In this document: one piece after another, positions 7,855 to 32,596 of the stretch
How the letters are laid out: each line of letters starts with the position of its first letter
Position numbering within the stretch: the first letter of the stretch is position 1
Origin: an uncultured virus (IMG/VR IMGVR_UViG_3300030060_003999)
Taxonomy: Duplodnaviria > Heunggongvirae > Uroviricota > Caudoviricetes
Direction: 5' to 3' (one strand)
IMG/VR virus record: IMGVR_UViG_3300030060_003999
Coordinates: 62,001 to 96,885 of that record
Length of the DNA: 34,885 bases
The notes under the pieces: generated by a model
Database searches by the model: none
The model's input: only the letters and a program-made list of their open reading frames with translations
What the model was told of the DNA's origin: nothing
Program-made: the position numbers and the translations under genes

Positions 7855-7964
7855 TTGGAAAACTAATTAAAGGAATAGCATATACCGCAGGTTTTGTAGC
7901 ACTTGGCACAGTTGGTGTGTCAATTATTGCTTACTTAGAGAATGCCGATTACGACTTAGAATAG
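7851..7964 (+). CDS. Small membrane protein (37 aa, not in ORF track)
   Basis: MIGKLIKGIAYTAGFVALGTVGVSIIAYLE...; ATGA overlap. Confidence 0.6.
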   Translation: MIGKLIKGIAYTAGFVALGTVGVSIIAYLENADYDLE

Positions 7965-7978
7965 GGTTGTTTATATAC
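7963..7978 (+). promoter_or_regulatory. Archaeal-type promoter of the Ubl gene
   Basis: Exact copy of 535-550, AGGGTTGTTTATATAC. Confidence 0.75.
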
Positions 7979-8015
7979 TTGAGAGAACTAGAGAGAATGA
8001 ACGGAAGTGAAAATT

Positions 8016-8222
8016 ATGATTAAACTAAGAATTTTAAATGAAACAGGACATACAGACTTAATGCTTGATGCTTCAGGCATTATTGAGCAAATTGACAACC
8101 ACCCGACCCATTGGGCTTTTATTGATGGTGAAATGGTTGCTAGAGAAGAAATCGCTAACATTAACTGGGACACGGTGCAATCCGTAGATTTAACCCCTGC
8201 AATTGTTGGAGGAAACCTTTGA
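8016..8222 (+). CDS. Ubiquitin-like (ThiS/MoaD/SAMP beta-grasp) modifier precursor ending GG-NL
   Basis: 68 aa; WAFIDGEMV resembles the 'vNGe.v' strand and VQSVDLTPAIVGG the 'D.v.i.p.v.GG' C-terminus; 2-residue extension after GG; GGAAGTGA RBS. Confidence 0.75.
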   Translation: MIKLRILNETGHTDLMLDASGIIEQIDNHPTHWAFIDGEMVAREEIANINWDTVQSVDLTPAIVGGNL

Positions 8223-8259
8223 GGATAAATAATTCTTAAAGTTCTCTTTTGCCCAAATT

Positions 8260-8303
8260 GGGGGAGTCGTTGGTATTTATTTACTGATGGCTTCCCCTTT
8301 TTT
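8260..8303 (+). terminator. Hairpin plus T6 tract downstream of the Ubl gene
   Basis: GGGGGAGTCGTTGGTA/TACTGATGGCTTCCCC 16-bp stem (5 G-U) followed by TTTTTT. Confidence 0.65.
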
Positions 8304-8305
8304 GG

Positions 8306-8695
8306 GTGATGCAACCTGATTTACTCAATTTTATTCACGAAAATGCCCTCCAAATCATGTTAGATTTGAAGGGTTGGAATTACACAAAGAATGCTGTAAT
8401 TCTAAATGACCTTGCGGTAGTAAAACCCGATTTCTACCCCGACAATTTTATCCTTGCTACTGGTCGCAAGGGGTATATTTATGCGCTCGGTGAGAGTCGC
8501 ATAGAATACGCAGGGAAGACCTATTCATCTACGGATGAATTGCTATCATCCTGCGGAAATGAAGCGTTAAAGGACTTCATAAACTGGAAGTTTCTAATGG
8601 AAAAAGAGTGGGTGATTACTGATGGTAATAGAAAGTTTATTTGCTCTTTTACTACATTAGACCAACTTCCCAAAAGAACCAAACATAGGTGTTAA
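8306..8695 (+). CDS. Hypothetical protein
   Basis: ORF abutting the RNR gene; start uncertain. Confidence 0.7.
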   Translation: MMQPDLLNFIHENALQIMLDLKGWNYTKNAVILNDLAVVKPDFYPDNFILATGRKGYIYALGESRIEYAGKTYSSTDELLSSCGNEALKDFINWKFLMEKEWVITDGNRKFICSFTTLDQLPKRTKHRC

Positions 8696-8697
8696 TT

Positions 8698-10563
8698 ATG
8701 GAACAAGCCCCAAATAAAAAAATATTATCCGATATTACTGTGCATATGAAATACGCAAAGTATAAGCCTGAATTAGAAAGAAGAGAAACATGGGAGGAAA
8801 TCTGCCAAAGAAATATGGATATGCACATTAAAACATATCCTCAACTTGAATCAGATATTAAAGATGTTTACAAGCATTTTGTCTTGCCAAAGAAAGTATT
8901 GCCGTCTATGCGTTCAATGCAGTTTGGTGGTAAGCCAGTAGAAATTTCTCCTAATAGAGTTTATAATTGTGCTTATATGCCAATAGATTCACACATAGCA
9001 TTTAGTGAGGCTATGTTCTTATTACTCGGTGGAACAGGAGTTGGATATTCTGTTCAAAGACACCATGTTGAATTAATGAAAGAAATTCAAAAACCAAACC
9101 TAAACCGTCAAAGAAGATATTTAGTTAATGATTCTATTGAGGGTTGGGCTGATGCAGTAAAGGTTCTAATGGAATGTTATACTGGTATTAGAACATCAAG
9201 CCCTATATTTGATTATTCAGATATTAGACCTAAAGGAAGTTTATTAAAAACTTCTGGAGGAAAAGCACCTGGAAGTCAGCCATTAAGAAAGTGTTTAGTT
9301 TTAATTGAAAACTTACTACAAAACATTCCTAATGGAACTAAGTTAAGTCCTATTCAAGCACATGATATTATGTGCCATATTGCTGATGCAGTATTAAGTG
9401 GTGGAATTAGGAGAGCAGCGATGATTAGTTTGTTTTCTGCTGATGACCATGAAATGATTGCTTGTAAATCTGGTAGTTGGTGGGAAACAAATCCACAAAG
9501 AGGTAGAGCAAACAATTCAGCAGTATTACTACGACATAGAGTAACTAAAGAATTCTTTATGGATTTGTGGAATAGAATTAAAGCGTCAGGAAGCGGAGAA
9601 CCTGGAATTTATTTTAATAATGATAAAGACTGGGGAACTAATCCTTGTTGTGAGATTGCGCTACGACCATATCAATTCTGTAATTTAACAGAAGTTAATG
9701 CCTCAGATGTTGTAGACCAAGCAGATTTAGAATCAAGAGTTTCAGCCGCAGCGTTTTTAGGAACATTACAGGCTGGATATACTGATTTTCATTATTTAAG
9801 AGAAGTATGGCGCAAAGCAACAGAAAAAGATGCTTTATTGGGAGTATCTATGACTGGTATTGCTTCTAATGTTGTTGAGCATTTAGATTTAGAAATGGCC
9901 GCTTATGAAGTAAAGAAAGAAAATGAAAAGGTTGCTAAGATAATTGGTATTAATCCTGCTCAAAGAACAACCTGCGTTAAACCTGCTGGAACTACAAGTC
10001 TTGTTTTAGGAACAAGTAGTGGTATTCATGCTTGGCATAATGATTATTATATTCGTAGGCTTAGAGTTGGAAAGAATGAAGCGATTTATGGCTACCTTTC
10101 AAGAGAACACCCTGAATTAGTTGAAGATGAATTCTTTAACCCAACAGAACAAGCAGTTATTAGTATTCCTCAACAAGCACCTAAAGATGCAATTACCCGA
10201 CACGAATCAGTATTTGATTTATTAGAGCGTGTAAAGAACTTTAGTATTCGTTGGGTAAGAGCAGGACATAATGATGGATTAAATACCCACAATGTTTCAG
10301 CAACTATTTCTATTAAAGACAATGAATGGGAAAGAGTAGCCGATTGGATGTGGTTAAACCGACATTATTACAATGGTTTGTCTGTTTTGCCGTATGATGG
10401 CGGAACATATACTCAAGCACCATTTGAAGACTGTAATGCTGAAATTTACCATAACTTAAGTAAATCATTAACAGAAGTTGATTTAACTAAAGTAATTGAA
10501 ACTCAAGATAATACAGACCTGTCAGGCGAAATAGCCTGTGCAGGAGGACAATGCGAAATATAA
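8698..10563 (+). CDS. nrdJ: Class II (adenosylcobalamin-dependent) ribonucleotide reductase, monomeric RTPR-type
   Basis: YNCAY, GTGVGYSV, KTSGGKAPG, RRAAMI, TNPCCEI (NPCxE), CVKPAGTTS, C-terminal CAGGQC; no beta-subunit gene nearby. Confidence 0.92.
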   Translation: MEQAPNKKILSDITVHMKYAKYKPELERRETWEEICQRNMDMHIKTYPQLESDIKDVYKHFVLPKKVLPSMRSMQFGGKPVEISPNRVYNCAYMPIDSHIAFSEAMFLLLGGTGVGYSVQRHHVELMKEIQKPNLNRQRRYLVNDSIEGWADAVKVLMECYTGIRTSSPIFDYSDIRPKGSLLKTSGGKAPGSQPLRKCLVLIENLLQNIPNGTKLSPIQAHDIMCHIADAVLSGGIRRAAMISLFSADDHEMIACKSGSWWETNPQRGRANNSAVLLRHRVTKEFFMDLWNRIKASGSGEPGIYFNNDKDWGTNPCCEIALRPYQFCNLTEVNASDVVDQADLESRVSAAAFLGTLQAGYTDFHYLREVWRKATEKDALLGVSMTGIASNVVEHLDLEMAAYEVKKENEKVAKIIGINPAQRTTCVKPAGTTSLVLGTSSGIHAWHNDYYIRRLRVGKNEAIYGYLSREHPELVEDEFFNPTEQAVISIPQQAPKDAITRHESVFDLLERVKNFSIRWVRAGHNDGLNTHNVSATISIKDNEWERVADWMWLNRHYYNGLSVLPYDGGTYTQAPFEDCNAEIYHNLSKSLTEVDLTKVIETQDNTDLSGEIACAGGQCEI

Positions 10564-10575
10564 GGAAGTGAACAA

Positions 10576-10950
10576 ATGAGAAACCTCTTCAAAAGTTATG
10601 AAGAGTGTGAATCAGTAATAATAAAAATGTGTAAGGGACTCTCCGATGAGTCTATAAATAAGATAAGATTAGCAATAAATGTCTGCGAGTCATTAATGTA
10701 TGACAAGGACAAAATATTTAGATTAACACAAACATACATACAACAATTATGGGATATACCTGAAGCCGTTAATACTGGCTTTCATAAATATTTTAGACAG
10801 GAAGCAATCAAACAAAAGAAACTATTGCAGTATCATAAGAAACATTGTCCAAAAACATACGAATGTAAGGTCTGTGAAACAATGAATATAAATATAAATA
10901 AATTGAGGAATGCCAATGAAAGAAAAAGACCCAAATTATGTATCAAATAA
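10576..10950 (+). CDS. Hypothetical protein with Cys/His cluster
   Basis: GGAAGTGA RBS; HC...CKVC. Confidence 0.7.
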   Translation: MRNLFKSYEECESVIIKMCKGLSDESINKIRLAINVCESLMYDKDKIFRLTQTYIQQLWDIPEAVNTGFHKYFRQEAIKQKKLLQYHKKHCPKTYECKVCETMNININKLRNANERKRPKLCIK

Positions 10951-11077
10951 AAGAAAAAACTCAAAAATCGCTACTCGTTGTAGAGTATGCGGTGAACCTC
11001 TCTTGATTGCTCAAGAGATTAAGCGTGAGATTCACGAATCTTGCGATAAAGATAATAGCAATATGTATATGATGTGA
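10910..11077 (+). CDS. Small Zn-finger protein (55 aa, not in ORF track)
   Basis: CRVCGEPL...HESC; fills the gap before 11082. Confidence 0.6.
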   Translation: MPMKEKDPNYVSNKRKNSKIATRCRVCGEPLLIAQEIKREIHESCDKDNSNMYMM

Positions 11078-11081
11078 TATT

Positions 11082-12257
11082 ATGGCAACAATAAGAATAT
11101 CAAAACCCGATGATAGTAATGAAACCTATCAAACAGAAATTACCTGTGAAACATTTAGATTCATGGATAATCATGTTTCTTATGATAGAAGCGCACTTGA
11201 CCCGCTACAATCAGGATTAGAAAAATATTGGAGAAGTATTCTTTCTCCTAAGAATCGTAGGTATCACACAAGAAACTTTGGCTTTGGAAGAACTTTTAGT
11301 CATTTAGTTATGATTAATGGTTGTCCTGTTCTATTGGCGAGGGAAGGCATTAGATACGAAGTAAATGGTAAATCATACAATTTAGCGAATGTTGCATCTG
11401 CTTTAGCAAGATTAACTTTTAAATCTTGTTTTGAAAATGAACCTTCTAAGTTATTGTCTGCTCTTTACTCAACTTTGTCTTTACCAGAAAATGTAAAGTA
11501 TTGTTTAGAGAATAAAGCCCCTTATCATTGGTATGAACTAATGGAGAGCGACGACCCAATTAAAGTTCGTCTTAATTGTCAGCAAATTGGCGACAATGAA
11601 ATCGCTATGGAAGTAAGTGATGGCGTTTGGGGAACAATTACAGTAAAACAATTAGATGTATTCTGTAATTATTATAAGAACGATAAAAATAGAGGAAGTT
11701 GGGTTGATACTTCTCCCGAACAATTATACGAAAGAACGGTTGGAAAAGAACCAACAGAATCACAAGTAGAAGTAATGAAAGCATTTCTAAAACAGAACAG
11801 AACATCTGATTTAGTTGAGCGTAGGGCTATTCAATTAGTTAATGAGTTGCTTGAACAATATCCCGACAGACTAAGTGCTGAATGGGATGGAGAAGTATTA
11901 GATAACATCATAGTCAAAGGAAAAGATTATGATTGGAAACTATCTAATAATAAATACAAGTCCGATATTCAAATGGTTTCAACTTATGTTTGGCAACCAA
12001 CTAAAGAAAAGAAAGCAGTTGGTGTAGATGAAGAAGATAATACTATTTATGAAACTATTTTCTCAGAACCAACTTGGCAAGGGCCGATTTGTATAGATAA
12101 TATGGCTAAAGGTTCTTCTTTGGGCGACCAATTCGCAGCAAGAGCATTAGCCTTGTTAAATGACAGATTTACTATTACTATTGTTAATACAATTAAGCGA
12201 TATTTACTCGCTAATCCTAATGAATATAGAGTTGATGAAAATGAAAATATGCGATGA
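11082..12257 (+). CDS. Hypothetical protein; C-terminal GPICID motif (speculative E2-like catalytic Cys)
   Basis: 391-aa ORF overlapping the TFB start; the ORF is secure but the function is not. Confidence 0.8.
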   Translation: MATIRISKPDDSNETYQTEITCETFRFMDNHVSYDRSALDPLQSGLEKYWRSILSPKNRRYHTRNFGFGRTFSHLVMINGCPVLLAREGIRYEVNGKSYNLANVASALARLTFKSCFENEPSKLLSALYSTLSLPENVKYCLENKAPYHWYELMESDDPIKVRLNCQQIGDNEIAMEVSDGVWGTITVKQLDVFCNYYKNDKNRGSWVDTSPEQLYERTVGKEPTESQVEVMKAFLKQNRTSDLVERRAIQLVNELLEQYPDRLSAEWDGEVLDNIIVKGKDYDWKLSNNKYKSDIQMVSTYVWQPTKEKKAVGVDEEDNTIYETIFSEPTWQGPICIDNMAKGSSLGDQFAARALALLNDRFTITIVNTIKRYLLANPNEYRVDENENMR

Positions 12258-13086
12258 ATGCGGAAGCACAGAAACAGAATATAATGAACAATTGGGCGAA
12301 ACCTGTTGCGTTGTATGTGGCTTAGTTATAGTCACGGAAATGTTTGAGGAAACAGTTCGTATTGTTGAAAATGGAGTAAATGTTGCTTCATCAGATAATG
12401 GGCGTTTAGGTTCAGTTATTACTGGACAAGGCTCATATAAATTCAATCGTTGGGGAAAAGATAGTGTCTTTCCTAAGAAAGTAATTGAAGGTTTTTATCA
12501 TTGTAATATGGTATTAAGTAATGTTGCTCCTCAAATGAAACTAAAAGCAAGAGTAGAAGAATTGTATCTTCTTTTCTTAAACAAAGGTTTGTTTGGAAGA
12601 ACAACTTACGAAGCAAGAGGAACTGCTGTTGTTTATTACGCATTACTTGAAAATGGAACTCAACACTCAATTAAAGAAGTGAGTGAAGAATTTCCTGATT
12701 CAATGAAAAGTGCTAAGAAACTAATTAGAAAGATTAAACAATTTTCGGGAACAAAGAAACTTCCTTACAATCCAAGATATAGATTGTTAAGAACAGTTGC
12801 TAAAGTTTCTCCTGATGATTTAGCCTTTAGAAGAGAAGCAGAAAATACTCTTGAGTATTTTGAATCAGTCATTAATAAGACTGGTGATTTTACAAAGTCG
12901 CCCAGTTATTATGAAGCAATTTGTTGGATTACTGTAAATAAAATGGTTCATCCAACTCTTCAAAGACAAATTATATCTGAAAAGACAGGTGTAAGCGAAA
13001 AGACAATTTACTTAGAAACTAAGAAACTATTAGGTTTAATTGGTTATAAAGTAGCCCAAGATGTAAAGGGCAAACAATTATGGTGA
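12241..13086 (+). CDS. tfb: Transcription factor B (TFB/TFIIB) homologue
   Basis: N-terminal Zn ribbon CDECGS...GETCCVVCGLV; cyclin-repeat features (LFGRTTYEARGTAVVYYAL...SIKEVS; QRQIISEKTGVSEKTIY). Confidence 0.85.
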   Translation: MKICDECGSTETEYNEQLGETCCVVCGLVIVTEMFEETVRIVENGVNVASSDNGRLGSVITGQGSYKFNRWGKDSVFPKKVIEGFYHCNMVLSNVAPQMKLKARVEELYLLFLNKGLFGRTTYEARGTAVVYYALLENGTQHSIKEVSEEFPDSMKSAKKLIRKIKQFSGTKKLPYNPRYRLLRTVAKVSPDDLAFRREAENTLEYFESVINKTGDFTKSPSYYEAICWITVNKMVHPTLQRQIISEKTGVSEKTIYLETKKLLGLIGYKVAQDVKGKQLW

Positions 13087-13090
13087 TAAT

Positions 13091-13414
13091 ATGTTTGAAA
13101 AAGAATGGAATAAAATAGCAAAAGAAGTATATAAGAATGCAGTTAATCATGGATTCTGGAAAGAAGAAGTAAATGATGGAGAAAGAATGGCTTTAATTCA
13201 TGCCGAGATTAGCGAAGCATTAGAAGCATTAAGAGAGGGTAATCCCTCATCAAATAAGATTATGGAATTTACTAATCTTGAAGAAGAATTAGCAGATGCG
13301 GTAATTCGTATAATGGATTACGCATTTGGTAAGGATTTAGATATAGCGGGTGCGATTCTCGCTAAGTTAGAATATAACAAAAGCCGTGAGTTTATGCATG
13401 GTAAATCGTTTTAA
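13091..13414 (+). CDS. MazG-like NTP pyrophosphohydrolase
   Basis: ALIHAEISEALEA...EEELADAVIRIMD...KLEYNKSR. Confidence 0.88.
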   Translation: MFEKEWNKIAKEVYKNAVNHGFWKEEVNDGERMALIHAEISEALEALREGNPSSNKIMEFTNLEEELADAVIRIMDYAFGKDLDIAGAILAKLEYNKSREFMHGKSF

Positions 13415-13427
13415 GGAGAGAATAAAT

Positions 13428-13985
13428 ATGAGAAAAATATTAATTATTGGAGCAGGTGGAATTGGGTCATTTTTGATTCAGTTCTTAAATAAAGTTGAAT
13501 TATATGATATTACGGTGGCTGACCCTGATACGGTAGAAACAAAGAATCTACCCTATCAAAACTTCAAGAGTGGAGATGTTTCTATAAATAAAGCAGTAGT
13601 TATGTTTGGGCGTTTTGATTCTGTCAAAAAATGCTCGGAATATCCTATTCTAACTGAAAAACAAATGAAAGGATATGATTTGATTATCTGTTGTGTGGAT
13701 AACCTTTCAGTAAGGAGAACCTTATACAACACAAGTCTTAAATGGCTTGACCTAAGAGCGCAAGGTAGAAACTGTGCGCTTGTGAGTCATAAAGCCGACC
13801 CTAAAATGTATGATATGCTTTTAGCAGGTGAAGAAGGCTCATTTAGTTGTCAAGGAGATTCATGGGATGGAACAAATACAGGTGTTCAATTCATGCAAAT
13901 AGCAATTGCAGGAATAGGCGCACAATGGATTCAAAGATATTTCAATGATGAACAAGTAAAAGAATATATGGTGCTAAATGCATGA
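13428..13985 (+). CDS. E1-like (ThiF/MoeB family) Ubl-activating enzyme, minimal form
   Basis: ILIIGAGGIGS nucleotide-binding loop; DPDTVETKNL; NKA; CCVDNLSVRR; WLDLR; SCQ candidate catalytic Cys; AAGGAG RBS before ATG 13428. Confidence 0.88.
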   Translation: MRKILIIGAGGIGSFLIQFLNKVELYDITVADPDTVETKNLPYQNFKSGDVSINKAVVMFGRFDSVKKCSEYPILTEKQMKGYDLIICCVDNLSVRRTLYNTSLKWLDLRAQGRNCALVSHKADPKMYDMLLAGEEGSFSCQGDSWDGTNTGVQFMQIAIAGIGAQWIQRYFNDEQVKEYMVLNA

Positions 13986-14015
13986 AAACAAAAAAAAACA
14001 ATGGAAGTGAAAATT

Positions 14016-15119
14016 ATGAATAATAGATGGACAAAAGAACAAGAAGCATACCTCTTAATTAAAAGGGAAGAAAGGATTCCCTATCAAACAATTAGTGAGT
14101 TAATGGAAACAAAGTTTGGTATTAAGCGTAGTGCTAACACTATTGCTGCTAAATACGGAAGCCTTACAAAAGGAGATAAGAAACAAACACGAAAGCCTAT
14201 CAGTTGGAATGAACGGAAGGTTGATTTCGTTTATAGTTGTCTTTGGAATGGTTTGACTTTGGATAGAATCAAAGAGGCTTTTGAGGCCGAATTTGATTAT
14301 AAGTTGAGCAACACACAATTGAAGAATTGTTTGGCAAAGAAGAAGCCTTCGGGTAAAATTCAAGCATTGGCTGAAAAGATGCTAAATCCTGAAAAGCCAA
14401 CCTTTAATCCTCTAAAGGAAGCAAAGAAGGTTGAAGAAGTTGAAGAAGAGAATTGGCGCATTGAGCCAGCAACTCGCAAACAACTTCGTTATCTTGCTTC
14501 ATTGATGAATCCTGATACATACGGAAAAGATTTGTCAAAAATGGCTAAAGGAATGCAGGGTAATTTTACTAAGGGTGAAGCCTGTGATAAAATTGATGAA
14601 TTGCTTTCAATCAACGATACAATCATTGAAGAAGAAATTGCTGAAGAAAGACCACGAAACATTAGGCCGTTGGTATCTGAGCAACCAACAGATATTGAAG
14701 TATTTGTTGAGAAGCATGGTAATCCAAAAACCCGTCATCTTTCAAAGAACGAAAAGAAAATGCTACTTGAGTTGAATGAACAAATTAAGAGTCTTGATGA
14801 ACAAATTCAACCAATTGAATTTACAAGAGAACAAGATATGTATTTGCTTATTAACTGGCATACAATGTCAATTGATGAAGCAAGAGAATACTTTGAAATG
14901 CCTTATTATCTACTCGCAAAGCGTTTAGAATTGGTGATTGATAGCACAGAACCTTATCATATTGACTTACTTATGGAGGCCGCTAAAGCGATTTCAGCCC
15001 GTAAGGAACAAGAGGATGCAATCAAGAATATGGGCTACTGGAAGCGCAGGAAACTGCGAAAACAGGAGAAGAAAGTGGCTAAGTTGGAGAAGAAACTCAA
15101 GCGAATGAGAGGTGAATAA
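14016..15119 (+). CDS. Multi-domain DNA-binding protein with Myb/SANT-like HTH repeats
   Basis: RWTKEQEAYL, SWNERKVDFV and FTREQDMYLL repeat starts; internal PATRKQLRYL module; basic C-terminal coiled coil. Confidence 0.6.
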   Translation: MNNRWTKEQEAYLLIKREERIPYQTISELMETKFGIKRSANTIAAKYGSLTKGDKKQTRKPISWNERKVDFVYSCLWNGLTLDRIKEAFEAEFDYKLSNTQLKNCLAKKKPSGKIQALAEKMLNPEKPTFNPLKEAKKVEEVEEENWRIEPATRKQLRYLASLMNPDTYGKDLSKMAKGMQGNFTKGEACDKIDELLSINDTIIEEEIAEERPRNIRPLVSEQPTDIEVFVEKHGNPKTRHLSKNEKKMLLELNEQIKSLDEQIQPIEFTREQDMYLLINWHTMSIDEAREYFEMPYYLLAKRLELVIDSTEPYHIDLLMEAAKAISARKEQEDAIKNMGYWKRRKLRKQEKKVAKLEKKLKRMRGE

Positions 15120-15120
15120 A

Positions 15121-15750
15121 ATGGGTAAAAATTGGTCGGCTGATGAATGCACTAAATGTGGTAATTTGATTTATTATGGAGGAAAAAATCCTTGTTGTGA
15201 TGAACCTTCTGAAGAAGAAATGCTCCATCATCTTGAAGAATTAGACCGAAAGCGGGAAAGGGCTGAATTGTATATATTAAATGCATACAATGAAATATTG
15301 GAACAACAACTTTCTTCTTGTGCAGGTTCAAAAGAAAATTTAATTGATGTGGCTATGCATGATTTAGATTTTCATGCTGCTATTTGGGAGGCTTCAACAG
15401 AAATACTACCTGCTTTAGAAGTTCAAGTCGTTATTGATGGTAAGAACAATTGTTTCGTAACAACTGGTTCTTCAGGTTATGTTGAATTTGGAATGAAACC
15501 TCCTGTTGGTATGACTTTACCGATTAGATGCTGGATTCATACTCATCCATTTGGTTCTGCCTATTTTAGCGGAACAGACATTAGAACTGTTTCTATTTGG
15601 GAAACAAATATGGAATGTGCTTATGTTCTTGGTGGAGAAGGTCATTACGGTTATTGGAATCAAACAAATCCAAAACAACTTGAAATTTACAGAAACAAAG
15701 ATGATGTTGAAAGAATTCAAACTTGGAAAAAGGGAGATGAAGAAGAATGA
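15121..15750 (+). CDS. JAB/MPN+ (JAMM) metalloprotease
   Basis: LEVQV Glu plus WIHTHPFGSAYFSGTD (HxH-x7-S-x2-D); N-terminal CTKC...CC; GAGGTGA RBS. Confidence 0.88.
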   Translation: MGKNWSADECTKCGNLIYYGGKNPCCDEPSEEEMLHHLEELDRKRERAELYILNAYNEILEQQLSSCAGSKENLIDVAMHDLDFHAAIWEASTEILPALEVQVVIDGKNNCFVTTGSSGYVEFGMKPPVGMTLPIRCWIHTHPFGSAYFSGTDIRTVSIWETNMECAYVLGGEGHYGYWNQTNPKQLEIYRNKDDVERIQTWKKGDEEE

Positions 15751-16022
15751 GAAATAAAAGAAAATACGGAGAAACAGATTTTGCACAGGAGATTAAGCCA
15801 CGAATGACTTTGTTAGAAAGAACAAAGGCTCATCAATTGCGTCATCCTAATGATAAAAACGAAAAGAGAACAGACAAGGGAATTACTTGGTCTAAAAAGA
15901 CTGAAAAGGATAAAGTCCTTGATGAGTTTCATAAGACCCATATTTACACTTATGTAGATGTAAATATGAATAAAGGTTGGGTTCGTGTAGCAACAAATGA
16001 TGAAGTAGGTGAAGAAGAATGA
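15747..16022 (+). CDS. Hypothetical protein
   Basis: ATGA-coupled ORF. Confidence 0.75.
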   Translation: MRNKRKYGETDFAQEIKPRMTLLERTKAHQLRHPNDKNEKRTDKGITWSKKTEKDKVLDEFHKTHIYTYVDVNMNKGWVRVATNDEVGEEE

Positions 16023-16381
16023 GTTGGGAATACCGAGAAATTATTAATTGGTTGAAAGAATTTCACCCTGATATTTATGAGAAGTGGTATATTCATACTA
16101 AGCCTAAAAGAGATAGAGAAGAAGCAAAATTGAATGCAAAGATTAGTGAAGTTCAAAATTGGCTTGATGATTTAAAAGACCATCCTCGCTGGAAAACACA
16201 GGAAGAATGGCGAAAAGCGATTCAACTTTGCATTGATGAAATTAATAGTAATGATGATTATGATACAAGACAAAATTACTGGAATGGTATTAAGGCTTTA
16301 GCGGGTCGTCATCCTGAATTCCCCACAAGAAGGGCTGTATTCAATAATACTCATTGGCAAGAAAGGAGTGAAGAAGAATGA
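16019..16381 (+). CDS. Hypothetical protein
   Basis: ATGA-coupled ORF. Confidence 0.75.
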   Translation: MSWEYREIINWLKEFHPDIYEKWYIHTKPKRDREEAKLNAKISEVQNWLDDLKDHPRWKTQEEWRKAIQLCIDEINSNDDYDTRQNYWNGIKALAGRHPEFPTRRAVFNNTHWQERSEEE

Positions 16382-16527
16382 ATGCAGAATATGACAAAAT
16401 AGTTGCAGAATATGACAAAATAGTAGCATTACTTATTGAAAACCATTTTGTTGAGACTAGTCCTTATGAGACTATCAAGCACTTGATTGAAACACATCAA
16501 GATTACAAAGAAGGTGAAGAAGAATGA
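16378..16527 (+). CDS. Hypothetical protein (49 aa, not in ORF track) with in-frame 21-nt tandem duplication
   Basis: MNAEYDKIVAEYDKIVALL...; TGCAGAATATGACAAAATAGT x2 at 16383-16424; ATGA overlaps at both ends. Confidence 0.65.
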   Translation: MNAEYDKIVAEYDKIVALLIENHFVETSPYETIKHLIETHQDYKEGEEE

Positions 16528-29250: not shown

Positions 29251-30879
29251 ATGATAATTAACAAGATGAAAGATGGTAAAACTATTTACAAATCATGGAG
29301 AGAAAACAATGAAAAGAAATTTGAATTGGTTGAGTTTCAACCGTATTTCTATGTGGATGAAGAATCCCATGAACCGCCAGCGTATAATGCTTCTAAATAT
29401 ATTACTAGAGAGTTTAGTTATGTTCGTGGTGATTGGGTTAATCTTATTAAAAATCCTCTAAAGAAGGTTCTTGTTGATTCAGCAAATGATATTAGAGAAG
29501 CAAAGAAGATATTCGGCAAAACCTATGAAGCAGATGTTCCTTTACACTTTAGATACTGTGTAGATGAATTAGATGAAATGCCTGAATATAATATGCGTAA
29601 ATGGTATTGGGATATGGAATGGCAACAAGGCGGAGAATATCACGACCAATTGACTACAATTGTTGTTTATGATAACTATGATAAAGAATACTATCAATGG
29701 GCGTGGTTTCCTGATTATGAAGGAGATGAAGAATATCGTTTTGATAATGAAAAAGATATGATAGAGTCTTTTATGACTACAATGATTGTAAAAGACCCAG
29801 ATATGTTAATTGCTTGGTTTGGTAATTTTGCTGATATTCCTAAACTTTTAGAAAGAGCGTGTGCAGTAGGTTTGAATCCCTGCGTTATGTCACCTATTGG
29901 TTATGTTAAAGGTATTAAAAAGACAAAGGAAGGATTTTCTTTTGCTTATGCGGAGAATGGATTTAATCCTATTGAACAACCTATTGGTGGGCGAATTACT
30001 CTTTCTTTAGACCTTGCATTTGAAAGACAATGGAATGACTCTCAAAGAGGAACATTACCATCAATGGCTTTAGATTACATAGGTGAAATGGTTCTCGGTA
30101 AAAAGAAATTAGTGTCGGAAAAGTTTCCTGATACAAATGAATTTTATCGTCGTGCTTGGTTAGAAGATACAGAAACTTATCTTGAGTATGCTCTAAAAGA
30201 TGTTGAATTGATTGTTGAAATAGATGAAACAAACTTTTGTAGTGAGGCTATTCTTTCTTTACAAAGATTACTAAAAGCACCATTTGATGCTTGTTTTTAT
30301 GCAAGTCATATGGGTTCTATTTACTTTATGCGTAATGCTGAGTGGAAAGCACCAACAGGAAGTAAAGTAGATAAAAGAGAAGAATATGAAGGTGCTATGA
30401 TTTATGACCCATTAAGTGAAGGAACAAATGGATTACATCTTAATGTTGCTGCTTTTGATTTTGCAGGTCTATATCCTAGTATGATGATTGCTCGTAATAT
30501 CAGTTGGGAAACAATTAGTGAAGAACCAACAGAATTTGCGGTAAATATTCTAACACCGAGAGATTTCAGCGAAACTACTAGACAACATATGTTATATTTT
30601 AAAACGGATGAACTGGGTTTATTGCCAAGAGCAGTATTGGAACTCAAGGAGTTGCGAAACGAATATAAGCGACTTATGAGAGATGCAAGAGGAACGGGCG
30701 AATATGCAAAGTGGTATAACAATCAAATGGCAGTAAAGCGATTAATGGCTTCTTTTTATGGTATTGTTGCTTTTCAAGGATTTGGTTGGGCTAATGTCAA
30801 TTTAGCCGCATCAATTACTGCAAGTGCAAGAGAAGCAATTAGATTAGCAGCATTTAAGGCAAAGGAGATGGAAGTATGA
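29251..30879 (+). CDS. polB: Family B DNA polymerase, N-terminal part (3'-5' exonuclease plus motifs A and B)
   Basis: YEADVP, WDMEW (ExoI), YALKDV (ExoIII), FDFAGLYPSMM, QMAVKRLMASFYG, ASITASAREAI; stops before motif C. Confidence 0.93.
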   Translation: MIINKMKDGKTIYKSWRENNEKKFELVEFQPYFYVDEESHEPPAYNASKYITREFSYVRGDWVNLIKNPLKKVLVDSANDIREAKKIFGKTYEADVPLHFRYCVDELDEMPEYNMRKWYWDMEWQQGGEYHDQLTTIVVYDNYDKEYYQWAWFPDYEGDEEYRFDNEKDMIESFMTTMIVKDPDMLIAWFGNFADIPKLLERACAVGLNPCVMSPIGYVKGIKKTKEGFSFAYAENGFNPIEQPIGGRITLSLDLAFERQWNDSQRGTLPSMALDYIGEMVLGKKKLVSEKFPDTNEFYRRAWLEDTETYLEYALKDVELIVEIDETNFCSEAILSLQRLLKAPFDACFYASHMGSIYFMRNAEWKAPTGSKVDKREEYEGAMIYDPLSEGTNGLHLNVAAFDFAGLYPSMMIARNISWETISEEPTEFAVNILTPRDFSETTRQHMLYFKTDELGLLPRAVLELKELRNEYKRLMRDARGTGEYAKWYNNQMAVKRLMASFYGIVAFQGFGWANVNLAASITASAREAIRLAAFKAKEMEV

Positions 30880-31500: not shown

Positions 31501-31697
31501 AAGAAGAAATTAAAGAATTAAAAAGAGAAATTAAAGCACTTAAGCAAAGAATTAGCGGTTTGGAAAAAGACTTAGATTATCAAGTTGAGCAGAATAGCAC
31601 CAATGGTAAAATGTCAAATGATATAAGAGATTTACAACAAGCAGTTGCCGATTTAGCAAAAGAACCAGTTGGAATGATGTTTGATTACCGAGCGTGA
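31497..31697 (+). CDS. Coiled-coil protein within the PolB split
   Basis: IKELKREIKALKQRISGLEKDL heptads. Confidence 0.7.
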   Translation: MKEEIKELKREIKALKQRISGLEKDLDYQVEQNSTNGKMSNDIRDLQQAVADLAKEPVGMMFDYRA

Positions 31698-31702
31698 ATA
31701 AT

Positions 31703-32596
31703 ATGAAAGTAGTTTATGGACATACCGATTCTATCTATGTGCAAATTGATTCCGTAGAAACTGCTCAAAAAGCGATTAAAGAAATTGAAGCATCAGTAAG
31801 GGAACACTTTCCTAATGTAATGGGATTAGATGAACACCCAGTAGTATTAGAATTTGAAAAGTATTTTTCAGCATTAGGTGTAGGAACAACCAAAAACAGA
31901 AATGCAGGGTTAGTATCTTGGGATGATGGAGAATGGTTAAAAGAACCAAAGTTCACTATGACTGGTTTTACTGCTAAAAGAGTGAGCGAAACTAAACTAG
32001 CCAAAGAAGTTCAAACTAATACTCTTCAAATGTGGGTTCAACAGAAAACTCAAGCAGAAATAAACAAGTATCTTTTTGACACATATCAAAAGGTCTTAAC
32101 TGGACAAATAGATTTAAAATCAATCATTAAAAGAAGCCGACTACGCCCTGCTAGATTCACAGTAAAATGCCCAGAATGTAAAACTAAATATCATCTTAGA
32201 GAATGTTTAGAGTTGAAACATTCTGTTTGTAAAAAATGTTCAACAGAAACAAAGCATTTTACTACTATGGAAGGAAAAAGACCGTCAATTGGTTCAGGAA
32301 TTGCTGGTGTTTTATATGCTTGGCAGGAAAATGACACTAATTTTGATGATTCTTATTTATTTATTAAAGTAATGGGCTTTTGTAATTCATTTATTCATCC
32401 TTTGACTCAAGAAAAGAAAGATGTTGAATACATATCGGGCATAACCAATGAAGATTTCAAAGGTTATACTCCCGATTGGAAGCACTACGCTGAACAAGTA
32501 GTAAAGAAAGCCGAACCTATTTACAAGGCTATGGGTTGGGATATATCGTCTATCCGCACAGGATATACACAACAAAGCCTTGATGAATGGTGGTAA
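31703..32596 (+). CDS. polB: Family B DNA polymerase, C-terminal part (motif C, thumb, Zn-finger insert, PIP box)
   Basis: VVYGHTDSIY, LEFEK, KNRNAG, GFTAKR, CPEC...CKKC insert, YAEQV, QQSLDEWW; alternative GTG start at 31694. Confidence 0.92.
   Translation: MKVVYGHTDSIYVQIDSVETAQKAIKEIEASVREHFPNVMGLDEHPVVLEFEKYFSALGVGTTKNRNAGLVSWDDGEWLKEPKFTMTGFTAKRVSETKLAKEVQTNTLQMWVQQKTQAEINKYLFDTYQKVLTGQIDLKSIIKRSRLRPARFTVKCPECKTKYHLRECLELKHSVCKKCSTETKHFTTMEGKRPSIGSGIAGVLYAWQENDTNFDDSYLFIKVMGFCNSFIHPLTQEKKDVEYISGITNEDFKGYTPDWKHYAEQVVKKAEPIYKAMGWDISSIRTGYTQQSLDEWW

Follow-up and report, generated by a model that had tools for sequence, protein, structure and literature searches.

Three genes of a marine archaeal virus, which encode a small protein ending in Gly-Gly plus two residues, an E1-like enzyme and a JAMM (JAB) protease, raise the question of whether they make up one ubiquitin-like (Ubl) pathway, and whether such a pathway would tag proteins or relay sulfur. 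The window, that is, the whole stretch of 34,885 nucleotides that was analysed, is part of a 96.9-kb (96,885-bp) genome of a magrovirus, an ocean virus of Marine Group II archaea. The preliminary description had assigned the gene set to an archaeal tailed virus, which is borne out, and the Ubl, E1 and JAB features were all found at the positions it gave. The set is located within the array of replication and transcription genes, outside the virion module, with the Ubl, E2-like, E1 and JAB genes scattered across 7.7 kb of the window. Comparisons were made over 81 loci, namely 80 viral loci fetched via the Ubl gene and the window. The features discussed below are:

7970..7977, plus strand: TTTATATA, resembling an archaeal TATA box, 39 nt ahead of the ATG of the Ubl gene
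8016..8222, plus strand: Ubl precursor of 68 aa with a predicted beta-grasp fold, ending in PAIVGG and then the cap NL (ATG at 8016, stop at 8222)
8260..8303, plus strand: conserved, terminator-like hairpin followed by T6, directly 3' of the Ubl gene
11082..12257, plus strand: orf391, a candidate E2-like carrier, with a C-terminal domain at about residues 241-391 and an invariant Cys337
12235..13086, plus strand: TFIIB-like zinc-ribbon protein, encoded between orf391 and the E1
13428..13985, plus strand: minimal E1-like adenylyltransferase of 185 aa, a single ThiF domain (Pfam PF00899)
14001..15119, plus strand: orf372, between E1 and JAB, variable and outside the assigned set
15121..15750, plus strand: JAMM/MPN+ metalloprotease with a JAMM motif and a variable N-terminal region

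The Ubl precursor, whose C-terminus reads TPAIVGGNL, belongs to a real family with 283 homologues at E ≤ 0.01, and the Gly-Gly is kept in 118 of the 120 homologues among the matches listed. G65 and G66 are invariant in an alignment of 50 sequences. Across the magrovirus Ubls the Gly-Gly is constant (81/81) and is followed by a variable tail of zero to two residues: 18 proteins stop exactly at the Gly-Gly, six carry one extra residue and 57 carry two, the latter with 19 different dipeptides. The AlphaFold2 model of the Ubl (pLDDT 89.8) has the element order beta-beta-alpha-beta-beta-(alpha)-beta, and the 50 listed Foldseek rows are almost all of ubiquitin/ISG15/NEDD8/SUMO type (best E 4.7e-3), in keeping with the beta-grasp fold expected for 8016-8222. 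Structural comparison gave Z scores of 5.4 to MoaD (21% identity), 5.3 to Fubi and 5.2 to a bacterial Bil Ubl; these fold scores are modest (Z ≤ 5.4), and sulfur carriers such as MoaD fit as well as ubiquitin. TTTATATA or TTTAAATA is found at the matching position upstream of the Ubl gene in all 14 loci inspected, a strict TATA-like pattern matched 37 of the 81 loci, and the element plausibly serves as a promoter. The downstream hairpin has a folding energy of -39.1 kcal/mol (z -6.1; none of 200 shuffles was as stable), its stem sequence varies between loci with pairing retained, and 56/81 loci have a T5+ run within 120 nt. Flanked by promoter-like and terminator-like elements of its own, the Ubl gene probably yields its product in quantity.

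The protease carries HTHPFGSAYFSGTD, that is, H-x-H-x7-S-x2-D; 45 sequences all keep E100, H140, H142, S150 and D153, and the JAMM motif is intact in all 77 complete JAB copies. Against Pfam Prok-JAB it scores 21.2 bits, below the cut-off of 25, and its profile matches AMSH-LP at E 1e-3 and, more weakly, Rpn11. It had been argued that the NL cap makes the Ubl dependent on this protease, a claim that fails in general given that 18 of the 81 Ubls already end at a free Gly-Gly. All 18 genomes with such a Ubl retain an intact JAB, which must therefore act beyond maturation, most simply in deconjugation.

The E1-like protein matches the Pfam ThiF family (PF00899) at E 1.3e-16 (60.9 bits, cut-off 28.1) when searched as its 199-aa GTG form; as its homologues are mostly 185-186 aa long, the ATG start at 13428 is supported. 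Its invariant residues are G8-G13, D32, D34, K39, N40, Y43, Q44, D91, N92, R96, S140, C141 and Q142. The E1 profile matches UBA5, UBA3, MccB, Cap2, Uba4, MoeB, ThiF and TcdA at E 5e-9 to 1e-5, and the best NCBIfam rows are ThiF and MoeB, both under their equivalog cut-offs (50 vs 275 bits and 36.5 vs 266 bits, respectively). The canonical arginine of the NLxRQ motif is missing (an arginine occupies the Y43 position in one of 106 family representatives), and the sequence has neither a CxxC zinc site nor a separate catalytic-cysteine domain; therefore, the chemistry of this E1 may differ. The complex of E1 with Ubl residues 1-66, the modelling of which had been suggested earlier, was predicted with a score of 0.58, the best of three controls reaching 0.01, with at least 97% of contacts agreeing between runs and a partner pLDDT of at least 86. 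The mark applied to this score is met by 116 of 157 solved complexes and two of 215 mismatched pairs, and 18 of the 157 solved complexes, plus both passing mismatches, lie at the mark but no higher than 0.60. The predicted interface thus weakly supports binding of the Ubl by the E1, and because E1-Ubl complexes of relatives have already been solved, the pass may reflect likeness only.

Both orf391 and its Cys337 are present in all 81 loci. By hhalign, orf391 matches the protein that precedes the Ubl in the phage operons described below with a probability of 68% (E 4.7e-5), compared with at most 1.6% for three control families. Superimposing the C-terminal domain of its AlphaFold2 model (pLDDT 89.7) using VIA-align gave modest scores for FANCL (Z 5.9), E2S (Z 5.6), UBE2F (Z 5.2) and RWD (Z 5.1). 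A Foldseek search with orf391 found nothing at E ≤ 1e-3, and at the sequence level no E2 family was matched (0 of 48 members in Pfam, 0 PDB chains). The C-terminal domain of the model looks like an E2/RWD domain, with Cys337 as the candidate catalytic cysteine. With this candidate E2-like protein in the array, the earlier picture of a SAMPylation-like system that works with E1 and JAMM but no E2 is probably inaccurate in its details.

The E2-like gene is found in 81/81 magrovirus loci, E1 in 79/81 and JAB in 78/81, the absences being confined to loci cut short (L017 and L068 without E1 and JAB, L009 without JAB), so that Ubl, E1 and JAB occur together wherever the flank is long enough. This co-occurrence is weak evidence alone because the whole gene array is conserved. 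Four distant bacteriophage contigs of 106-204 kb, all of which have a sigma-70 gene, carry a contiguous operon encoding, in order, a 684-731-aa protein, a Ubl ending in GG-C or GG-N, a Prok-JAB and a minimal E1; the magrovirus Ubl profile, scored locus by locus, matches these phage Ubls at E 2e-7 to 4e-5. In the Ubl of L088, some 140 residues come after the VGG and would need to be removed. The cassette occurs in both archaeal and bacterial viruses. Among the best 150 of 10,216 E1 relatives, a Ubl is fused to an E1 in the metagenome proteins P0299 and P0349 (E 3e-18 and 6e-8 with the Ubl profile), and an E1 to a JAB in P0388 (E 7e-16 with the JAB profile). One divergent magrovirus group has E1 and JAB genes that overlap by 4 nt, immediately preceded by the E2-like gene. 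Taken together, adjacency, fusion and co-occurrence support the view that Ubl, E1 and JAB form one functional set, as the preliminary description had proposed. The zinc-ribbon gene, present in 78/80 loci, is only a candidate member of this set; its start is uncertain (the ORF opens at 12160), and the only matches of its product are weak ones to Zn_Ribbon_TF in Pfam (E 2e-4, under the cut-off) and TFIIB in NCBIfam (E 0.0031). Pfam and NCBIfam searches with orf372 gave no family match, and tblastn detected it in 50 of 80 loci in addition to the window.

Searches for ThiG, MoaE, PALP, PP-loop, rhodanese and PAPS-reductase matched none of the 128 ORFs of the genome; the absence of a sulfur-acceptor gene noted for the window thus holds across all 96,885 bp. 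Of five further complete magrovirus genomes, all had ThiF and none had PALP, PAPS_reduct, ATP_bind_3 or Rhodanese. Since no sulfur-acceptor or transfer gene was found and the set has a candidate E2-like part, we consider protein tagging by a viral Ubl pathway to be the best reading, with a probability of roughly 0.6. The preference for tagging over sulfur relay stated earlier stands insofar as no viral sulfur partner is seen; capped Gly-Gly ends accompanied by JAMM proteins also occur in sulfur carriers, so the cap alone gives no preference, and tagging is only the likelier of the two.

We hypothesize that the virus runs its own four-part ubiquitin-like modification pathway, consisting of a tag, an E1, an E2-like protein and a JAMM protease. 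The tag would be the 68-aa beta-grasp protein, from which the protease would trim the one- or two-residue cap after Gly-Gly, where present. The E1, probably a homodimer like MoeB and ThiF, would adenylate the exposed glycine with ATP, as its conserved nucleotide loop and active-site residues D91, N92 and R96 suggest. The activated tag would then be passed, perhaps via the invariant Cys141 of the E1, to Cys337 in the E2-like domain of orf391, and from there to lysines of target proteins. The protease would also undo the tagging, which would explain its retention where the tag has no cap. If this is true, an ocean archaeal virus tags proteins with its own ubiquitin-like machinery.

It is conceivable, but unlikely, that the Ubl is instead a sulfur carrier, uncapped by the JAB, adenylated by the E1 and converted to a thiocarboxylate by a host sulfurtransferase, with the sulfur given to a host enzyme or an unrecognised viral one. 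The product might be cysteine, thiolated tRNA, or a cofactor or nucleotide modified with sulfur, and the JAB could then also hydrolyse a Ubl-product adduct in the manner of Mec+, which reportedly hydrolyses CysO-cysteine. MoaD as the top structural match of the Ubl, ThiF and MoeB as the top NCBIfam rows for the E1, and the minimal E1 itself agree with this, MoeB-type enzymes not being known to need a catalytic-cysteine domain, and the virus could draw on sulfurtransferases and acceptors of its host. Furthermore, JAMM-removed caps are present in QbsE (GG-CF)/QbsD and CxnE/CxnF, going by the accessible part of PMC5925218, and cysH and a PLP-dependent enzyme are auxiliary genes in some magroviruses (PMC10160649). 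Those auxiliary genes are sporadic, however, whereas all loci fetched via the Ubl gene have the Ubl set; the E1 scores below the ThiF and MoeB equivalog cut-offs, the acceptor and sulfurtransferase families are missing from the genome (four of them also from the five other complete genomes), and a conserved E2/RWD-like partner with an invariant cysteine has no role in a sulfur relay.

The JAB of genomes with no cap to remove, and the spread of the cassette over archaeal and bacterial viruses, would also suit proteins that act on a host Ubl system rather than in an independent pathway, for example a JAB that strips host tags off viral proteins, or a Ubl and E1 that feed into, or compete with, the host's SAMP-type machinery and proteasome. 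Since bacterial Bil systems tag phage tail proteins in defence (PMC10557695, available portion), a virus would benefit from a deconjugase. We find such hijacking improbable, as the JAB alone would suffice for stripping, yet the Ubl, E1 and orf391 are retained alongside it in all loci, and the fusions join the viral Ubl to a viral-type E1, which points to a self-contained pathway. That the E1-like enzyme acts on some other substrate, as TcdA does on tRNA and MccB on a peptide, with the small GG protein and the protease independent of it, is hardly credible: its profile does match TcdA and MccB and the three genes are non-adjacent in the window, but the operon adjacency in four distant phage loci, the Ubl-E1 and E1-JAB fusions, the invariant GG end and, weakly, the predicted Ubl-E1 interface stand against it.

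The RaFAH paper (PMC8276007) counts a ThiF/MoeB gene among the auxiliary genes found most often in archaeal virus genomes, and reports the E1 of marine archaeal viruses as 'MoeB' with a passing one-sentence link to ubiquitination, and Asgard 'Nidhogg' viruses encode three E1-like proteins (bioRxiv 10.1101/2021.07.29.454249). Unlike our proposal, these reports, in their available portions, name an E1 only, propose hijacking of host systems and describe no viral Ubl, JAB or E2-like partner. The preliminary description knew of no account of such a system for an archaeal tailed virus; in print, we found only the E1 of the set, as a 'MoeB' auxiliary gene. The combination of Ubl, E1, JAB and candidate E2 recalls the conjugation-type clusters of E1-like, E2-like, JAB and novel Ubl genes predicted by Iyer, Burroughs and Aravind in 2006 (PMC1779556), who also note ThiF proteins with fused Ubl domains; the accessible part of that paper gives as sole viral case the lambda/T1 tail-assembly pair of a Ubl (TAPI) and a JAB-NlpC protein (TAPK), without an E1. 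Unlike PRTRC-type cassettes, the magrovirus set has an E1 that scores below the PRTRC ThiF model (42.7 vs 144.75 bits).

With the archaeal SAMP system (SAMP1-3, UbaA, HvJAMM1), as far as the available portions of PMC4443979 and PMC4895103 describe it, the magrovirus set shares the archaeal setting, a beta-grasp modifier ending in GG, a MoeB/ThiF-type E1 and a JAMM protease that reverses modification. It differs in that its E1 scores far below the UbaA model (30.4 vs 450 bits) and in having an E2-like candidate. SAMPylation is not known to need an E2; UbaA also serves sulfur transfer. The QbsE/QbsD/QbsC and CxnE/CxnF systems likewise have a small GG protein that continues past the GG, by two residues in QbsE, and a JAMM protein is proposed to take these off before ThiF-type adenylation. 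Unlike the magrovirus genes with their cysteine-bearing E2-like candidate, these systems belong to biosynthetic clusters in which sulfur is accepted, and their E1 is of MoeZ type with a rhodanese domain; no such gene was found in the magroviruses searched (PMC5925218, accessible part).

The bacterial BilABCD systems (Types I and II), composed of the Ubl BilA, the E2 BilB, the JAB BilC and the E1 BilD, are compared here on the basis of the available portion of PMC10557695. In Type II, up to nine variable residues come after a conserved glycine, the JAB pre-processes the Ubl as well as cutting conjugates, and the cysteines of both E1 and E2 are required. In contrast to this host defence, the magrovirus set is virus-encoded and dispersed over 7.7 kb of the window, its E1 is a single 185-aa domain rather than a tandem inactive/active pair with a cysteine domain, and its E2-like protein matches neither BilB nor any E2 family in sequence. 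Nevertheless, the four kinds of component correspond, with the magrovirus E2 as a candidate, as do the conserved glycine with a variable cap, the lack of an E3, the maturation and deconjugation of the Ubl by the JAB (for the magrovirus, as proposed) and, in the phage relatives, a compact operon that ends with JAB and then E1.

The window forms the terminal 34.9 kb of one viral contig of 96,885 bp. Besides the genes discussed below, it carries a clamp loader, a sliding-clamp-like protein, two ATP-dependent ligases, a class II ribonucleotide reductase (RNR), a GroEL-type chaperonin and a family-B DNA polymerase split into two genes (29251-30879 and 31694-32596, ~800 nt apart with small ORFs in between), and the remainder of the genome encodes the major capsid protein, prohead protease, portal, terminase and tail tube. 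This gene content matches that of the magroviruses as described in the available text of PMC5434244, according to which these viruses rank with the most abundant in the surface ocean and infect Marine Group II archaea, hosts that are so far uncultivable. One homologue of the small ubiquitin-like protein (Ubl) is an NCBI hypothetical protein of "Poseidoniales virus YSH_150918". The only matches among the genome contigs searched (L095, L096 and L097, from metagenome-assembled genomes) were binned under Altibacter sp. and Maricaulis sp. They were rejected as bacterial homologues and are probably viral contigs binned by mistake, because their genes are arranged as in magroviruses (Ubl, RNR, orf391, E1, JAB, chaperonin). 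The genes under study are as follows.

8016-8222, plus strand, Ubl, 68-aa protein with a C-terminal Gly-Gly and the cap NL
11082-12257, plus strand, orf391, candidate E2-like carrier
12235-13086, plus strand, TFB-like gene
13428-13985, plus strand, E1, 185-aa ThiF-family protein
15121-15750, plus strand, JAB, JAMM/MPN+ metalloprotease

The Ubl reading frame is present as first proposed, from the ATG at 8016 to 8222, and its 68-aa product ends in PAIVGGNL. It belongs to a family of small proteins with at least 283 members, and the Gly-Gly is kept in 118 among the 120 homologues listed. It is likewise found in all 81 copies from the 80 viral loci fetched via the Ubl protein and the window, with G65 and G66 invariant in the alignment. 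Eighteen of these copies end exactly at the Gly-Gly, 6 have one extra residue and 57 have two (19 different kinds). Modifiers and carriers that are trimmed before use typically show such a pattern, with an invariant Gly-Gly and a short, freely variable tail behind it. Only two longer forms were found, one with an over-long start call and the other a 131-aa read-on from a single 705-bp contig, and both were set aside as uninformative. The copies have at most two lysines each and 23 of the 81 have none, so that lysine-linked chains of the tag look unlikely from sequence.

No profile match to ThiS, MoaD or ubiquitin was found for the Ubl in Pfam, NCBIfam or PHROG, and its own profile retrieved nothing under E 0.24 from the sequences of the PDB. 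The AlphaFold2 model (50 sequences, pLDDT 89.8) has the beta-grasp order of elements and a loose C-terminal tail. Among the 50 Foldseek matches listed for this model almost all are of the ubiquitin, ISG15, NEDD8 or SUMO type, with a best E of only 4.7e-3. VIA-align gave Z scores of 5.4 for MoaD, 5.3 for Fubi and 5.2 for the bacterial Bil Ubl (BilA), the range across MoaD, Fubi, BilA, ISG15, TtuB, SAMP1 and ThiS being 5.4 to 4.2. Foldseek and the wider structural search thus support the beta-grasp fold on which the preliminary description depended, with modest scores that do not separate a ubiquitin-type from a ThiS/MoaD-type protein.

Residues 11-13 and 29-33 of the Ubl form invariant histidine motifs, G-H-T and H-P-T-H-W, which are unusual in comparison with ThiS, MoaD and ubiquitin and of which remnants (GH and W) persist in the phage and fused homologues described below; these motifs may constitute a putative binding surface or metal site. 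A TTTATATA box lies at 7970-7977, 39 nt upstream of the start codon, and the stop codon is followed at 8260-8303 by a strong hairpin (-39.1 kcal/mol, z -6.1) and then T6. In related viruses the stem sequence of this hairpin varies and the pairing is maintained. This arrangement suggests that the Ubl gene is transcribed on its own.

The assignment of 13428-13985 to the ThiF/E1 adenylation domains was borne out, as the protein passes the Pfam cut-off for ThiF (PF00899; 60.9 vs 28.1 bits, E 1.3e-16) and its nucleotide loop and D91-N92...R96 are invariant; the ThiF family is also present in all five other complete magrovirus genomes. E1/ThiF enzymes are characterised by a glycine-rich nucleotide loop and by the Asp in their D-N...R active-site motif, and in 30 diverged copies of the viral protein G8, G10, G11, G13, D32/D34, D91, N92 and R96 do not vary. 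In canonical enzymes the arginine of NLxRQ is ATP-binding. The viral E1 is devoid of this arginine and has an invariant Y43 at the position, and S140-C141-Q142 is also invariant in the 30 copies. When 1.84 billion representative proteins were searched with the E1 profile, 10,216 relatives were retrieved at E<=1e-3, 475 of them at E<=1e-10, and the best 150 of the 10,216 include 106 full-length representatives (175-230 aa). We regard these as a distinct family of minimal E1-like enzymes on the basis of sequence, since the SCQ motif is found in 98 of the 106 and the finger position equivalent to Y43 is Tyr in 59, His in 9, Phe in 6 and Arg in only 1.

The scores of the E1 against the ThiF/MoeB equivalog models TIGR02356 (50 vs 275.25 bits), NF004281 (36.5 vs 266 bits) and TIGR02355 (30.7 vs 376.55 bits) lie well below their cut-offs, and none of the curated cut-offs for ThiF, MoeB, UbaA, PRTRC and Cap2 is reached. 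In PADLOC, whose 2023 library may lack Bil models, the CBASS E1-E2 models alone touch the E1 (best 36.7 bits), and the Ubl and JAB are unmatched. The closest solved structures to the minimal E1 profile (PDB identifiers 9egb, 9egc and 9egd; E 5e-9) are those of an uncharacterised protein of ~265 aa annotated as 'THIF-type NAD/FAD binding fold domain-containing protein'. A single distant E1 protein (P0257), used as query, found no match in genome contigs or viral contigs.

The preliminary description had joined the genes for the Ubl, E1 and JAB into one pathway. Within the magroviruses, 78 of the 80 loci have E1 and 77 have JAB, the misses being truncated loci (L017 and L068 for both genes, L009 for JAB). 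This co-occurrence is weak evidence of linkage, because the entire array is conserved, the chaperonin and the TFB-like gene included. The evidence from outside the magroviruses is stronger. Four viral contigs of 106-204 kb (L085 to L088) were reached through a distant member of the minimal E1 family, and they are bacteriophages since each has a sigma-70 factor gene. In all four, contiguous genes encode a 684-731-aa protein, a 75-80-aa protein with a GG-C or GG-N end, a Prok-JAB protease and a minimal E1, and the small proteins are found by the magrovirus Ubl profile with E 2e-7 to 4e-5 (scored within the locus). In L088, ~140 residues continue past the VGG of the Ubl domain, which from its sequence would be releasable only by a cut after the Gly-Gly. 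Fusions were also observed among the best 150 of the 10,216 E1 relatives, two of Ubl to E1 (Ubl profile E 3e-18 and 6e-8) and one of E1 to JAB (JAB profile E 7e-16); another relative, P0377, resembles a Ubl-E1 fusion by eye, without a match to the Ubl profile. In a divergent magrovirus group, 4-nt overlaps join the genes for a zinc-ribbon protein, E1 and JAB. Thus, the view of the three genes as one set is upheld by their adjacency in distant phages and by the fusions, and co-occurrence within magroviruses carries little weight alone. Complex prediction for E1 with Ubl residues 1-66 (score 0.58 vs 0.01 for the best of three controls) lends weak support, and the result may reflect no more than likeness to relatives, because related E1-Ubl complexes have been solved.

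The phage sigma-70 genes lie 1.9-3.6 kb downstream of E1 (L085:14139-14921, L086:12462-13259, L087:14227-15009, L088:14151-14972), and in magroviruses the TFIIB-like gene (12235-13086 in the window) sits between the E2-like gene and E1. In viruses of both domains the cassette thus lies close to a transcription initiation factor encoded by the virus itself, which may be chance. A ribonucleotide reductase is also encoded near the set in the window (8689-10563) and, upstream of the cassette, in three of the four phage loci (L085, L086 and L087), the one in L086 carrying inteins with LAGLIDADG domains. A functional tie between the set and this enzyme was dropped, as 41 of the 80 magrovirus loci have the set with no RNR match within the fetched flanks.

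The JAMM motif, given as E...H-x-H-x7-S-x2-D in the available text of PMC5925218, is intact in the JAB, in agreement with the initial observation: E100, H140, H142, S150 and D153 do not vary across 45 sequences whose mean column identity is only 33%, and the motif is preserved in all 77 complete copies. The JAB profile matches AMSH-like proteases (E 1e-3) and, more weakly, Rpn11. The window JAB scores 21.2 against the Prok-JAB family (PF14464; cut-off 25 bits), and phage-cassette JABs score 41.1, 30.2 and 25.4. The magrovirus JAB profile had no match to the phage-cassette JABs at E<=0.01, and these were recognised by their motif and by Pfam. An intact JAB is kept in 18 of the 18 genomes whose Ubl needs no trimming, and its retention beside an uncapped Ubl would fit a deconjugating role. 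The same GAAGAAGAATGA ends four consecutive genes, JAB, orf91, orf120 and orf49 (15736-15750, 16008-16022, 16367-16381 and 16513-16527), and because of this common gene end all four products terminate in Glu-Glu-Glu, with the stop codon overlapped by the ATG of the next gene. The EE end of JAB is >90% conserved, and the repeated gene end looks like a reused translational-coupling signal.

A fourth component is perhaps provided by orf391, which is present in all 81 loci and which we consider, with moderate confidence, a candidate E2-like carrier. In profile comparison it resembles the C-terminal half of the large protein encoded before the Ubl in the phage cassettes (probability 68%, E 4.7e-5); three unrelated magrovirus families used as controls reached 0.1-0.3% against the same profile and 0.1-1.6% across both query profiles. 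Cys337, located in the common C-terminal motif, is invariant in the 81 copies and the 4 phage homologues, and comes after the last strand of the sheet in the AlphaFold2 model (pLDDT 89.7). Residues 241-391 of this model align best with FANCL (Z 5.9 over 85 residues), E2S (5.6 over 112), UBE2F (5.2) and an RWD domain (5.1), and E2, UEV or RWD proteins make up most of the 50 structural matches listed. Foldseek returned nothing at E<=1e-3, many of its weak rows being UbcH5-type E2s, and an ESM Atlas search with orf391 gave no usable match. At the sequence level, none of 48 members matches UQ_con, Prok-E2 or another E2 Pfam family at E<=1, the orf391 profile has no match to PDB sequences at E<=10, and no known family was found across the sequence-family libraries searched.

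We favour the reading that the virus encodes its own protein-tagging pathway, as predicted from these genes, and assign it a probability of about 0.6. A cap that a JAMM protease takes off cannot by itself distinguish tagging from sulfur relay, because QbsE/QbsD and CxnE/CxnF, as described in the available part of PMC5925218, are sulfur carriers of the same kind. Host enzymes could supply the pathway of such a carrier. The sulfur partners that the preliminary description had not seen in the window are also not seen in the whole genome, whose 128 ORFs include no match to ThiG, MoaE, a PLP-dependent synthase, a PP-loop ATPase, rhodanese or PAPS reductase. PALP, PAPS_reduct, ATP_bind_3 and Rhodanese are each absent from the five other complete magrovirus genomes, with the controls for this search detected in 13-14 of the 14 named genomes; the sulfur-related auxiliary genes reported from some magroviruses (PMC10160649) are sporadic. 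The conserved cysteine of the E2-like candidate partner and the JAB retained where the Ubl needs no trimming also speak for tagging and deconjugation, and we therefore consider a sulfur-carrier pathway unlikely. That the viral proteins act on Ubl systems of the host seems less likely still, and in view of the cassettes and fusions it is very improbable that the genes are functionally unrelated.

Beyond the tagging reading itself, we tentatively propose, at slightly less than even odds, that archaeal and bacterial tailed viruses share a self-contained four-part Ubl tagging pathway, comprising the tag, a minimal E1 of 185 aa whose active site has a variant of its own, a previously unrecognised E2-like family and the JAMM protease. 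In magroviruses it would reside in the conserved replication and transcription array, and in both groups always near the viral transcription initiation factor (TFB-like here, sigma in the phages); given this proximity, it could retarget or remove host transcription or replication machinery during infection. If true, a protein-tagging pathway owned by the virus would add a new route of host takeover for prokaryotic viruses. The very small E1 and the new E2-like family would be easily expressed and studied, and both would help trace the origin of ubiquitin-type conjugation from sulfur-carrier chemistry.

Four-part systems encoded by hosts (Bil) and the prokaryotic Ubl clusters predicted in 2006 are well described in the available text of PMC10557695 and PMC1779556, respectively. 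Searches on ubiquitin-like systems encoded by phages or viruses, and full-text searches on magrovirus together with ThiF or ubiquitin, found nothing in the freely accessible literature. In the text and available supplements of the three main papers on magroviruses, ThiF, JAB, MPN and ubiquitin go unmentioned, with the exception of Table S3 of PMC10160649, which has a 'moeB' column and a 'Saccharopine dehydrogenase NADP binding domain' column. The accessible part of PMC8276007 counts a MoeB/ThiF gene as one of the commonest auxiliary genes in the genomes of archaeal viruses, with a one-sentence link to ubiquitination, and that of an Asgard virus preprint (bioRxiv 10.1101/2021.07.29.454249) reports three E1-like genes. 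The metabolic label 'moeB' for the E1, as it appears in Table S3 and in that part of PMC8276007, probably misleads ecological readings of these genomes.

Among known systems, SAMP/UbaA differs in its E1, as the viral protein scores 30.4 against the 450 bits of the UbaA equivalog NF047750, and the PRTRC cassette likewise, with 42.7 vs 144.75 bits for TIGR03736. Of the four BilABCD components, the Ubl, JAB and E1 have counterparts here, and for the E2 there is a candidate. The E1 of BilABCD, as far as described in the available text of PMC10557695, consists of tandem inactive and active adenylation domains with a cysteine domain, whereas the viral E1 is a protein of 185 aa with one ThiF domain.
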